A stretch of 64,000 bases of DNA, from the sequence record PZ476263.1. The stretch is one strand, 5' to 3'. A model generated the notes under the pieces. It was given only the letters and a program-made list of their open reading frames with translations, was not told where the DNA came from and ran no database searches. The first letter of the stretch is position 1; each line of letters opens with the position of its first letter. Source of the stretch: a phage. Of the stretch, positions 50,338 through 60,055 are shown piece by piece. The translations under genes and the position numbers were made by a program.

Positions 50338-50979
50338 GTGGCAGAGAACGTAGAGAAAAAAGATGTTAACCACATCCATCCTCTGCCCGATTTCGTAAAA
50401 GGCGGTATAGATTACTTACCGCCCGAGATCTTTGAAAACAAAGATAACTTGCAGAAGGTCCTTGAGATCTTTCTGAAACGTCTTGAACTCATTGATCAAA
50501 AAGCTGTTGAACTTGCAGAGATGAGAACAATAATCAATGCGGAAGGTGAGACGCTTGACGAGATCGGAAGACAAAATGGGATATTCCGTAATGGACTCAA
50601 TGACCCTGAATATCGCGCGGTAATCATCATCCTAACGGGTGTTGGTTCTAAGAGCGGCACAAGGTCAGAAATAATATCCACACTGAAGCAGCTTTTCGGT
50701 GACGAAGGTGTTACTACCTATAAGGGTAAGAACTACCGAATGGATATTAACATATTTAACACATGTGTTGAAGTTGAACTTATTCTTGACCAGATCCTCG
50801 ATATGCTTCCTTTGGTTACTCACTTGAGACTTGTGGAGCATCAAGGGTATCCCTTTGGATTTGAGGGTGACCAACAAGCTTTCGGGTGGGCATCTGTCTA
50901 TGACAGTGAAAGAACTGGTGCAGGTGGATTATCAACTTTAGTTTATGTATCTGACGAAGAAGACCCTTGGAGCTTCTAA
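50338..50979 (+). CDS. baseplate/tail protein (gpI-like position), putative
   Basis: 213 aa, synteny. Confidence 0.3.
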   Translation: MAENVEKKDVNHIHPLPDFVKGGIDYLPPEIFENKDNLQKVLEIFLKRLELIDQKAVELAEMRTIINAEGETLDEIGRQNGIFRNGLNDPEYRAVIIILTGVGSKSGTRSEIISTLKQLFGDEGVTTYKGKNYRMDINIFNTCVEVELILDQILDMLPLVTHLRLVEHQGYPFGFEGDQQAFGWASVYDSERTGAGGLSTLVYVSDEEDPWSF

Positions 50980-57541: not shown

Positions 57542-58774
57542 ATGATCCCTTTTCCAATTATAAACTTCGGTGCAGGACCTGTAATTCCGGCTGGGGTGAA
57601 AATTAAAAATATTCTTAATAATGTTTCTGGCGGAATCTATCTTTTGCTAACAAATGGTGATCTCTATGTTGTTGGTAATCAGGGCGGAAACGGTCTAGGA
57701 AAGAACGGAACAGCAAATATATTACCTTCTGGGTGGACCCTTACAAACACAGGTGTTGAGGAAGTCTATCCTGCAAGTATTACATATGGTTCTGGTGTGT
57801 GGGTTAAGAAGAATAATAATCTTTATGAGTATACGTCATCTTCAGTATTCCCTGCCGTAGCTACTGAACTAAATAACTCCTGGAACGTATTGCCTGCATC
57901 TTATTACACAATAGGAGGGGTTAATATACTGTCCTCCGCTGTCCAGATAACTAAAAACTACGCTATTCAACCTGACGGCACAGTTTACCAATTCAAAGCC
58001 ACAGGTCCTGAAGTGGCATGGCCCGAGAAGACTAAATACATTTTCGAAAATACCTTTAACCAAGTAAGGGTTGATGTTGACGGAAGTTTAAGATACAACG
58101 GTCCCAACGGGTACGACAGGATAGATGGCACTGTTTCTGGGGCAACTACCACATTGACTTGGAAAACAATAGGCGATTCCACAGTAAGATACGTGAAGGC
58201 AAAATGTTCGAGAGGTCAAATAAGAGATCCTTCCGGCGGGACTGGTGCGGTCCCTATAGTTGCTGTCTTTGCTCAAAGAGAAGATGGAGTTTGGGAAGGA
58301 TGCGGATCTACAGGTAGAGCAGGTTCCTCGCTTGGCAATTTACAAGGACCTACCTTGGGTGTAATGACCGACGTACCTGTGGGTAGTGACCTCTATACAG
58401 GTCAGGTATCCAGTTACAGAGAGGCGAGCTTAGGTGTGAGGACTGCCCTTCAAACATATATTGTAGATAGGGTTACCAATACGTACCTTTCCTCTGGCGG
58501 ACAAGGTGGTGAAACATACTCCCTGTACAGAAACTTACCTATCGCCACAAACTCTACCACTTATGCATCTATGGATCAACAGATAATTGATGATGGTGGT
58601 GTTCTGACGATTGCGGAAGGATTTGGAGATACCTTTGGACTACTTGCTACAAATAATGGGAGTCTTTATTGGGTTGGTAAGGGTTACAGTGGTACTAACT
58701 GGCCTTCTGACTTTAATAACACCTCTACTTATTTAAGTAAGTTCAATCTTGAAGGGATAGTGATTCCTGAATAA
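57542..58774 (+). CDS. putative receptor-binding / tail protein with beta-propeller-like repeats
   Basis: 410 aa, Gly/Thr/Asn-rich, repeated G.LY.VG motifs; last gene of late unit. Confidence 0.35.
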   Translation: MIPFPIINFGAGPVIPAGVKIKNILNNVSGGIYLLLTNGDLYVVGNQGGNGLGKNGTANILPSGWTLTNTGVEEVYPASITYGSGVWVKKNNNLYEYTSSSVFPAVATELNNSWNVLPASYYTIGGVNILSSAVQITKNYAIQPDGTVYQFKATGPEVAWPEKTKYIFENTFNQVRVDVDGSLRYNGPNGYDRIDGTVSGATTTLTWKTIGDSTVRYVKAKCSRGQIRDPSGGTGAVPIVAVFAQREDGVWEGCGSTGRAGSSLGNLQGPTLGVMTDVPVGSDLYTGQVSSYREASLGVRTALQTYIVDRVTNTYLSSGGQGGETYSLYRNLPIATNSTTYASMDQQIIDDGGVLTIAEGFGDTFGLLATNNGSLYWVGKGYSGTNWPSDFNNTSTYLSKFNLEGIVIPE

Positions 58775-58778
58775 TAAA

Positions 58779-58809
58779 AAAGGCTCCCAAAAGGGAGCCT
58801 TTATTTTTA
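58779..58809. terminator. bidirectional intrinsic terminator between convergent transcription units
   Basis: AGGCTCCC-aaaa-GGGAGCCT flanked by A-run upstream and T-run downstream. Confidence 0.65.
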
Positions 58810-58819
58810 TCCTTGAATA

Positions 58820-59977
58820 TTAGAATGGAATTTCATCATCGAAATCCATCATTCCGTCTGCAACCGACATATCGATGTGACCATCTGAAATCGTAGATTG
58901 AGGAGCATCTTCTTCACTAGGCTTCAGATCCTGCTGTTTTACAGGATCCTCTACCTTGCCACCATTTCGAATCTTATCTTCCAGAGAATTAATGAATCGG
59001 AATGTTTCTTCTGTTTTCTGAATAAATGCATCAATACTTTCATTTCCCCAACGAGCAGAAAGAATACCGGACTGACCTAAACGTGCACCAAATGCATAAT
59101 CATCTAAAGATTTAAATTCATCACGTAGCTTGGCTTTAACAGAATCCATAGCTTGAAGGATCTGTTCTACGATAACACCTTTTTCCAAAACTGATTGTTC
59201 AGGGAACATAGCTTCAGAAATTGAAAGGGCATTTCCGAGGCGAATAGGTAGATCATCTTTCTTACTGCCGCCGGACTTATTGCCTGTTGAGCCGCCTGAA
59301 TTTTTAGGACCATACGCTTTAAAGTTAGTTACTTTACCTTCACCATCCCGCAGACCTGCAATTCGACCATCTTTAGCAATTTGAGCCAACTGATCATTAG
59401 AAAGAACGACAAAAACTTCTTCACCACTTTCCACTTTCACAACCACACGATTCCCATCTACCGATGTAATATCACCATAGATTTTAGTTGCCGTTGCAGA
59501 AGACGTTTGCTGGCCTTGCTGTGCTGACTGTTGGCGAGCCTCTCGTGCACCGGAAGCGTCCGTAACCTTAATCTTAGATTTCTTACCTTCAATTGATTCA
59601 CCTTGCTCACCATTAGCACGAGTAAAGACTTTCTTTGAAACAGGTAGACGAATCTTCATACCCTCTTTCAGATCAACGTAGCCACCTTCAGGATTCTTAA
59701 TCTGGAACTGATTTTCATACTTCAGATTCTTAACTTCACCTTCACCAAAAGAAATCCAAGCCTGATCTTCACCTTCTTTCAACAGAACAGAATATCGATG
59801 AGTATTGTTAATGCTCTTTTGTTGGCCTGTGCTCTTATCCTTGAATGTCGTAACTCGTGGACTGCCGTCTTCATTAATACGTTTGATAACGATTCGCTCA
59901 ATAGTACCCGCAGCGATAGAAACAGTAACATCGTTAACAGCATCGTATACAGAATTAATAACTTTAACTTCAGACAT
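58820..59977 (-). CDS. SSB-like ssDNA-binding protein (long form) with acidic C-terminal tail
   Basis: C-terminus DGMMDFDDEIPF mirrors bacterial SSB tail DFDDDIPF; Gly/Ser/Gln-rich linker. Confidence 0.45.
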   Translation of the reverse strand: MSEVKVINSVYDAVNDVTVSIAAGTIERIVIKRINEDGSPRVTTFKDKSTGQQKSINNTHRYSVLLKEGEDQAWISFGEGEVKNLKYENQFQIKNPEGGYVDLKEGMKIRLPVSKKVFTRANGEQGESIEGKKSKIKVTDASGAREARQQSAQQGQQTSSATATKIYGDITSVDGNRVVVKVESGEEVFVVLSNDQLAQIAKDGRIAGLRDGEGKVTNFKAYGPKNSGGSTGNKSGGSKKDDLPIRLGNALSISEAMFPEQSVLEKGVIVEQILQAMDSVKAKLRDEFKSLDDYAFGARLGQSGILSARWGNESIDAFIQKTEETFRFINSLEDKIRNGGKVEDPVKQQDLKPSEEDAPQSTISDGHIDMSVADGMMDFDDEIPF

Positions 59978-60055
59978 TCAAACTCTCCTTTATTGATTAC
60001 CCTTTCGGGAACAGAAACTATATTACTACTTCAAAACTTCAATTGCAACTACTTT

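Follow-up and report, generated by a model that had tools for sequence, protein, structure and literature searches.

A gene at positions 58820..59977 on the minus strand of a 64,000-nucleotide stretch of phage DNA (sequence record PZ476263.1; the whole stretch is referred to as the window) was analysed. Its product is best explained as a divergent multi-domain phage replicative single-strand DNA-binding protein (SSB) with a bacterial-type docking tip, a reading to which a probability of roughly two in three is assigned. The reading draws on the gene and its expression signals, on a predicted oligonucleotide/oligosaccharide-binding (OB) fold, on the conservation of the tip, on full-length homology to the phage protein Bas52_0087, on a syntenic position with replisome genes and on the lack of any other recognisable SSB. 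The gene is a complete coding sequence by open reading frame (ORF) and translation: it starts with ATG at 59977-59975, stops at 58822-58820 and encodes 385 amino acids plus stop, with the C-terminal end ...MMDFDDEIPF. A first-pass annotation had given the same coordinates and length, which are exact by ORF list and translation, and had left the minus strand unstated. It had proposed either a phage SSB with extra domains or a hijacker of SSB-interacting host factors, more than twice as long as a usual SSB. The length is borne out (385 amino acids against 178 in E. coli SSB, 2.2-fold), and the proposal is supported by the OB fold and the conserved tail, evidence that fits either of its versions.

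For the domain layout, an AlphaFold2 model was built from a 48-sequence alignment (mean predicted local distance difference test (pLDDT) 78.9, predicted template modelling score (pTM) 0.40), and secondary structure elements were assigned from the model with DSSP. The model was confident inside the domains; the overall pTM was low, as expected, because the domains are joined by flexible linkers. Domain 1 (amino acids 1-145; 59543..59977, minus strand as for all parts of the protein) is a predicted divergent nucleic-acid-binding OB fold with extra beta-hairpins and a net charge of +4, in which A22, G24, H60, G78, Q92, K94, G106 and P112 are invariant. It is followed by linker 1 (amino acids 146-162; 59492..59542), a Gln/Ser-rich, low-complexity and predicted disordered segment (EARQQSAQQGQQTSSAT) with pLDDT below 50 at residues 150-160, 71% G/S/Q/N/T and variable length and sequence among homologs. 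Domain 2 (amino acids 163-224; 59306..59491) is predicted to be a small five-stranded, OB/SH3-like beta-barrel, with strands at 164-174, 177-182 and 187-191, a helix at 194-197 and strands at 205-210 and 215-222. These elements have pLDDT values of about 88-91, the motifs KxYGEI, GGRxAG and FKAYGP are conserved, and weak SH3-like Pfam matches were obtained in 12 of 48 family members (best E 4.6e-5). Linker 2 (amino acids 225-240; 59258..59305) is Gly/Ser/Lys-rich (KNSGGSTGNKSGGSKK) and predicted disordered, with pLDDT below 50 at 228-238. The first-pass annotation had described one Gly/Ser/Gln-rich low-complexity linker; the low complexity was confirmed, but two linkers of different composition are present instead of one.

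Domain 3 (amino acids 241-338; 58964..59257) starts at the invariant D241 and is a predicted four-helix bundle of the type termed A below ('DLPIRLGNAL'), with helices at 243-257, 263-284, 293-307 and 315-337 and pLDDT values of about 79-93. It leads into an acidic spacer (amino acids 339-377; 58847..58963) that is predicted disordered (pLDDT 43-55). Residues 339-385 together have a net charge of -10. The protein ends in the tip DFDDEIPF (amino acids 378-385; 58823..58846), and no cysteine is present in its whole length.

The fold of domain 1 was assessed by structure comparison. In a Foldseek search against predicted viral structures, family members ranked on top (Erwinia phage Hena1, E 4e-25), and the named matches below them were almost exclusively phage SSBs, with probabilities of 0.97-1.0. 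In the fold search with domain 1, no OB subfamily dominated and Z reached a maximum of 7.5, which argues for a genuine but divergent OB fold. On the predicted model, domain 1 would qualify as an OB fold of the nucleic-acid-binding type.

At the level of sequence, no match to the Pfam SSB family (PF00436) was obtained, with E values up to 10 for the window protein and up to 1 for 48 family members. Assignment through Pfam was rejected, as solely sub-threshold SH3-like and proteasomal-OB matches on domain 2 were returned, and so was assignment through phmmer against PDB sequences, which gave noise only (nitrogenase Fe protein, E about 0.3). A zinc-binding subdomain of the T4 gp32 type is excluded by the lack of cysteines, and tblastn with gp32 gave no significant match. 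Similarity to T7 gp2.5 was found neither in sequence nor in fold. One tblastn alignment of E. coli SSB residues 40-92 with the OB domain (27% identity, E 1.7) was not significant and was not used; it covers 59708-59848 of the window (amino acids 44-90) and the same place in phage W70 (L001:9130-9270), and might reflect a remnant of shared ancestry. The protein is a member of phrog_4477, the family of Bas52_0087, and stands by sequence outside the Pfam SSB, gp32 and gp2.5 families.

The tip reproduces the docking peptide of the bacterial SSB C-terminus (SSB-Ct): by tblastn, the last nine residues match MDFDDDIPF of E. coli SSB at 8 of 9 positions. When the family profile was compared with PDB sequences, the top match was E. 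coli SSB (1eqq), solely via its tail ...PPMDFDDDIPF, and some homologs are identical to E. coli SSB across 12 residues (EPPMDFDDDIPF in P0090). Tip statistics were taken from 90 homologs of similar length, obtained in a search of 5.8 billion proteins. The motif [DE][FWY][DE]x[DE][IV]PF was found in 88 of them, at the C-terminal end in 76 and before a conserved extension of about 15 residues in 12. Column entropy in an alignment anchored on the tip was 0-0.5 bits at most tip positions and 1.3 bits at position -5, compared with about 3 bits for the spacer at a distance of 20-45 residues upstream of the tip. As judged from these alignments, the conservation of the tip is far beyond chance and suggests strong purifying selection on the tip only. 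The first-pass annotation had made its proposal depend on an OB fold and on a tail kept in homologs; the former is predicted in domain 1 in divergent form, and the latter was found in nearly all of the homologs compared. Besides the tip, a second, partly conserved motif, NGH[IV]DM[ST]PP, was seen at positions -19 to -11 in about 65% of homologs. Its GH(I/V)DM core reads GHIDM in the window protein (amino acids 365-369; 58871-58885) and could be a second short linear interaction motif.

Residues 4-385 matched the phrog_4477 profile over its entire length (positions 1-393 of 393) with E 8.8e-76. This family is annotated without function, and none of the 90 homologs of similar length carries a functional name. 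By tblastn, the family was found in 136 phage records from all sampled Vequintavirinae genera, nearly all of them Vequintavirinae-like myoviruses of 120-155 kb. Labels read 'hypothetical protein' throughout, except for one GenBank homolog (H73) labelled 'ssDNA-binding domain-containing protein'. An exhaustive profile search of 1.84 billion representatives returned only 199 clusters, of which about 30 were full-length and more than 100 were short forms. The short forms (P0224-P0351) are proteins of 220-335 amino acids from uncultured phages with one N-terminal beta domain, the helical domain of the family and an acidic spacer; ten were scanned, and all ten fell in phrog_4477. An xPF end was present in 76 of 105 short forms. 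The ends IPFN, IPFS and IPW were seen in a few, which shows that a terminal Phe is not universal in this group. Short forms such as gp28 of Aeromonas phage vB_AceP_PAc share with the window protein the helical domain (of type A in PAc), an acidic spacer that is disordered, and a tip ending in xPF; their N-terminal beta domain carries the G..V...TH signature of the family, and they are encoded directly downstream of primase and polymerase. Unlike the window protein, they have no second barrel and are without much of the elaboration of domain 1, and they occur in other phage lineages.

The one family member studied genetically is the full-length homolog Bas52_0087 (QXV84166.1) of Escherichia phage RudolfGeigy/Bas52 (genome MZ501102). 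Identity to the window protein is 26% by BLASTP (E 7e-21), and hhalign gave a probability of 100 and E 1.9e-52 over 384 aligned columns. Both proteins belong to phrog_4477, are encoded downstream of the polymerase and have their parts in the same order, with the OB domain first, then the small barrel, the helical domain and the disordered tail, and the (D)FDDxIPF tip at the end; they differ in sequence and in the helical domain, which is of type B (ETGHS) in Bas52_0087 and of type A (IRLGNA) here. Bas52_0087 is needed to activate the DRT10 (UG17) reverse-transcriptase defence against the Vequintavirus phage Bas52, and the escapers recovered were missense only, D252V and Y351C (bioRxiv 10.64898/2026.04.29.721553). 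Expressed alone, it left cells unharmed and did not trigger DRT10, SbcB (ExoI) overexpression weakened the defence, and the authors proposed that Bas52_0087 competes with or displaces SbcB (bioRxiv 10.64898/2026.04.29.721553). From AlphaFold2 and Phold predictions the protein was described there as 'SSB-like', with two OB folds, disorder in the C-terminal region and FDDDIPF as its tip (bioRxiv 10.64898/2026.04.29.721553). The central idea of the first-pass annotation is thus already in the literature for a homolog, as a structure prediction. The present analysis adds that the family is syntenic with replisome genes in several phage groups, that no other SSB was recognised, that the primase/helicase shares the tail, that the helical domain comes in two exchangeable types and that short forms are widespread.

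The family gene is syntenic with replisome genes in three unrelated phage groups. In Vequintavirinae (W70, Bas52), it follows the primase/helicase and polymerase genes downstream, at a distance of a few kb. In the Aeromonas Plateaulakevirus phage PAc, the genes for primase and polymerase are followed by one ORF and then by the short form. An uncultured phage of 83 kb has a DnaB_C helicase gene, then DNA_pol_A, one ORF and the short form. On another uncultured phage contig, a 55-amino-acid ORF with a match to Pfam Phage_T7_Gp5_9 was observed immediately upstream of the short form P0237 (L009:709-876); T7 gp5.9 is a RecBCD inhibitor.

No SSB is annotated among the 231 features of the curated Bas52 genome, which include polymerase, primase/helicase, helicase, ligase, exonucleases, endonuclease VII and ribonucleotide reductase; clamp genes are not annotated in it either. 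For the closest clade, Septuagintavirus, the published description names polymerases, helicases/primases, a ligase and an endonuclease VII, and an SSB appears nowhere in it (PMC11370258). A crude tblastn search with prototype sequences (E. coli SSB, T4 gp32, T7 gp2.5) against the window and the whole Bas52 genome returned nothing beyond the tail of the SSB-like protein. The missense-only escapers of Bas52 fit an essential gene and, taken together with the synteny and with the absence of another SSB, support an essential replisome SSB.

The layout of the protein is SSB-like, which counts for a replicative SSB: the OB domain is basic (+4), the disordered tail is acidic (-10) and the tip matches that of E. 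coli SSB. With bacterial SSB (E. coli SSB, PF00436; phage HK75 SSB) it shares the disordered acidic linker and the tip (8 of 9 residues). It differs in that the OB domains have no sequence similarity, that the one here is about 60 residues longer, that two further folded domains are predicted and that oligomerisation is probably through the helical bundle rather than through OB-OB contacts. The following mode of action is proposed. The basic OB domain, possibly with the small second barrel, would bind the single-stranded DNA (ssDNA) exposed by the DnaB-type primase/helicase and the family-A polymerase. The four-helix bundle would provide self-association in place of the OB-OB tetramer interface of bacterial SSB, and the long acidic disordered tail would present DFDDEIPF as a docking site. 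As the tip is the same as that of the host SSB, the protein may engage ExoI/SbcB, RecQ, PriA, the chi subunit or RecO, or compete with host SSB for them. Since the primase/helicases of these phages have a near-identical tail, docking of this peptide on the phage polymerase may occur as well, as in T7. The tip may thus bind the host proteins, the polymerase of the phage or both; contact with host SSB-interacting proteins is favoured by its identity to the host SSB-Ct and by the link to SbcB.

A possible, though clearly less probable, version is that the protein is an SSB whose tip is used as in T7, docking on the phage family-A polymerase and/or the primase/helicase rather than on host proteins, with the identity to the host SSB-Ct being ancestral or convergent. 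Tails were counted in 120 primase/helicase homologs (P0091-P0210); the primase/helicase gene of the window phage itself is located outside the window. A Pro-Phe end was found in 112 of the 120 and an acidic run before it in 110, with the consensus D-[LF]-D-[NSD]-D-[ST]-P-F. The Bas52 primase/helicase (L002:42612-44690) ends in ...FEDDETPF, and that of Cronobacter phage GAP31 has ...DFDNDTPF followed by the extension described below. The helicase/primase tails of more distant phages (...MEDEVETF in L012, ...ASSQSF in PAc) have the Phe end with an incomplete motif, so the strong shared tail is a feature of Vequintavirinae-type primase/helicases and not universal. In T7, the tail of the SSB gp2.5, which is acidic and ends in Phe, anchors on the basic patch at the polymerase front; the study placed it on the tail peptide of the gp4 helicase from PDB 6P7E (PMC12339929). 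In phage HK620, the final six residues of the SSB recruit the phage partner Sak4 (PMC5928155).

The replisome is also T7-like, with a DnaB-type primase/helicase, a PolA-type (family-A) polymerase and, in Bas52, no annotated clamp genes, and in both systems an acidic run with a final Phe closes the SSB or SSB-like protein as well as the primase/helicase. In T7, both of these tails dock on the DNA polymerase. The proteins themselves differ: T7 gp2.5 is a dimer of one OB domain without extra domains and without detectable sequence similarity to the window protein, and its tail ends in D-G-D-F, not in the bacterial I-P-F motif. Against an exclusively T7-like use of the tip, the exact identity to the host tip across 8-12 residues exceeds what an acidic Phe tail needs, and the SbcB link points to a host partner. 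Docking on phage and on host proteins is not mutually exclusive.

It is quite improbable that the protein is a decoy for the host interactome, with a copied tip that sequesters or redirects ExoI/SbcB, RecQ, RecJ, PriA, Ung and others and thereby protects phage DNA ends or shuts down host repair, and with OB domains that tether it to DNA or serve otherwise. Such a role would agree with the identity of the tip to that of the host (up to 12 of 12 residues in some members), with the weakening of DRT10 restriction by SbcB overexpression and the proposed SbcB competition (bioRxiv 10.64898/2026.04.29.721553), and with several tips per particle if oligomerisation occurs via domain 3. However, host viability is unaffected by expression of Bas52_0087 alone, the OB domain is strongly constrained and better conserved than any other globular part, and about 340 structured residues would be unneeded by a pure decoy. 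The gene is moreover syntenic with polymerase and helicase rather than with host-takeover genes, in a phage replisome without another recognised SSB. Very unlikely is a recombination or repair accessory, that is, an ssDNA-binding mediator for recombination or replication restart, or a partner of an annealase or nuclease, in place of a fork SSB: RecO and PriB scored no better than SSB/RPA, no recombinase gene adjoins the family gene in the contexts examined, the gene tracks with polymerase and helicase, and no separate fork SSB was recognised.

Several points weigh against a replicative SSB with a docking tip. Sequence similarity to Pfam SSB, gp32 or gp2.5 was not detected. Binding of ssDNA is a prediction across the family, including in the preprint on Bas52_0087, and the roles of domains 2 and 3 are putative. 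A second, cryptic SSB could be encoded among the many small hypothetical genes, or host SSB could serve phage replication. That Bas52_0087 alone is harmless and does not trigger DRT10 argues against strong dominant interference with host SSB partners. Finally, known SSB-Ct pockets bind the terminal carboxylate, and the conserved extension, carried by 12 of 90 homologs, would bury the carboxylate of the terminal Phe, so that acting as a C-terminal ligand may not be a general property of the tip.

This extension consists of about 15 residues after the DDDIPF tip (APIGLQYPNHAIYVL, APVTLPFPRHAIHAI and similar) and follows the pattern APxGLQY..HAIxxL. Among the 90 homologs it is carried by 12 (P0007, P0008, P0013, P0015, P0020, P0054, P0065, P0070, P0082, P0086-88). 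It is also found on the family member SSBI34 (L008:1894-3093), on some primase/helicases including that of GAP31 (L007:1521-3578), and on canonical E. coli-type SSBs of lambdoid and Vibrio phages, including HK75 SSB (L013:1084-1590). At least 80% of a 30-residue tip-plus-extension query was covered by matches in 133 phage records, and a literature search for the extension ('DDIPFAP') found nothing. In GAP31, an HNH endonuclease gene (L007:3568-4065) sits between the primase/helicase and DNA polymerase genes and overlaps the last codons of the former by 11 nucleotides, exactly at the extension; possibly a homing endonuclease gene has inserted here, where the tip is encoded. A homing endonuclease was rejected as the general source of the extension, as SSBI34 and HK75 SSB carry it with no endonuclease nearby.

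Two types of helical domain were distinguished among 47 proteins. Type A (IRLGNA) was found in 16, among them the window protein, W70, SSBI34 and the Aeromonas short form, and type B (ETGHA) in 31, among them Bas52, Certrevirus and Seunavirus. The types are mutually 13-21% identical, and the identities of OB domains to that of the window protein overlap (42-78% for type-B proteins, 32-97% for type-A proteins), which together indicate that the helical module has been exchanged between lineages. Both DRT10-escape positions map inside or at the edge of domain 3. D252 of Bas52_0087 aligns to the family-invariant D241 of the window protein; Y351 falls on E333 and is not kept, as the window protein has the other type of helical domain. 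The region of domain 3 has been proposed as an oligomerisation interface (bioRxiv 10.64898/2026.04.29.721553), and domain 3 is regarded here as a candidate oligomerisation module. A separate four-helix domain suggests a mode of assembly differing from the OB-OB homotetramer.

The gene looks functional from its expression signals. A strong Shine-Dalgarno sequence (AAGGAGAG; 59983..59990, minus strand) was read from the sequence 7 nucleotides before the ATG. Downstream, a bidirectional intrinsic terminator hairpin at 58779-58802 (both strands) has a perfect, GC-rich 10-bp stem with 6 G-C pairs and T-runs on both strands. It sits in the 45-bp gap to the convergent ORF 57542-58774 and is the shared terminator of the convergent early-type and tail-fibre transcription units: the SSB-like gene is the last of a minus-strand block of small early-type genes, all without assigned function, and faces plus-strand tail-fibre genes. 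The window comes from a new phage related to the Septuagintavirus group (W70, A73, UPEC06, LTH01), with about 77% nucleotide identity across roughly one third of 52-64 kb. Proteins 94-97% identical to the SSB-like protein are encoded on metagenomic contigs of 138-141 kb. Elsewhere in the window, in the tail/baseplate region, a 213-amino-acid ORF (50338-50979, plus strand) ends in ...YVSDEEDPWSF, and the same gene in W70 (minus strand) ends in ...DDEDPWGF; this acidic and aromatic end is probably unrelated to SSB tips.

Current ideas are not overturned by these results, as the existence of divergent phage SSBs that carry a tip of the bacterial type is to be expected and the main architectural point has already appeared in the preprint (bioRxiv 10.64898/2026.04.29.721553). 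Vequintavirinae and their relatives are common therapeutic-candidate phages with their own replisome, in which the SSB has been missing from genome papers and annotations; phrog_4477 as SSB would fill this gap in roughly 140 deposited genomes and many metagenomic phages. A further, tentative and on the whole unlikely picture is that phrog_4477 proteins are modular hub SSBs, built from an OB module, a swappable four-helix module and a universal docking peptide, with the extension as a switch. If this were true, the four-helix module would set self-assembly and be what DRT10-type defences sense, and its swap would be a route of immune escape. The peptide common to the primase/helicase and host SSB would plug the phage replisome into the host SSB network, and the APxGLQY..HAIxxL cap would mask or re-target it. 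The family also bears on the conflict between phage and host, since its member Bas52_0087 is the genetically defined trigger of DRT10. As the window member carries the other helical variant where the escape mutations lie, it offers a natural test of what DRT10 recognises. The Pro-Phe tail common to the SSB-like protein, the primase/helicase and host SSB gives a concrete, testable picture of how a T7-like replisome could be organised and could exploit or perturb the interaction partners of host SSB, such as ExoI.

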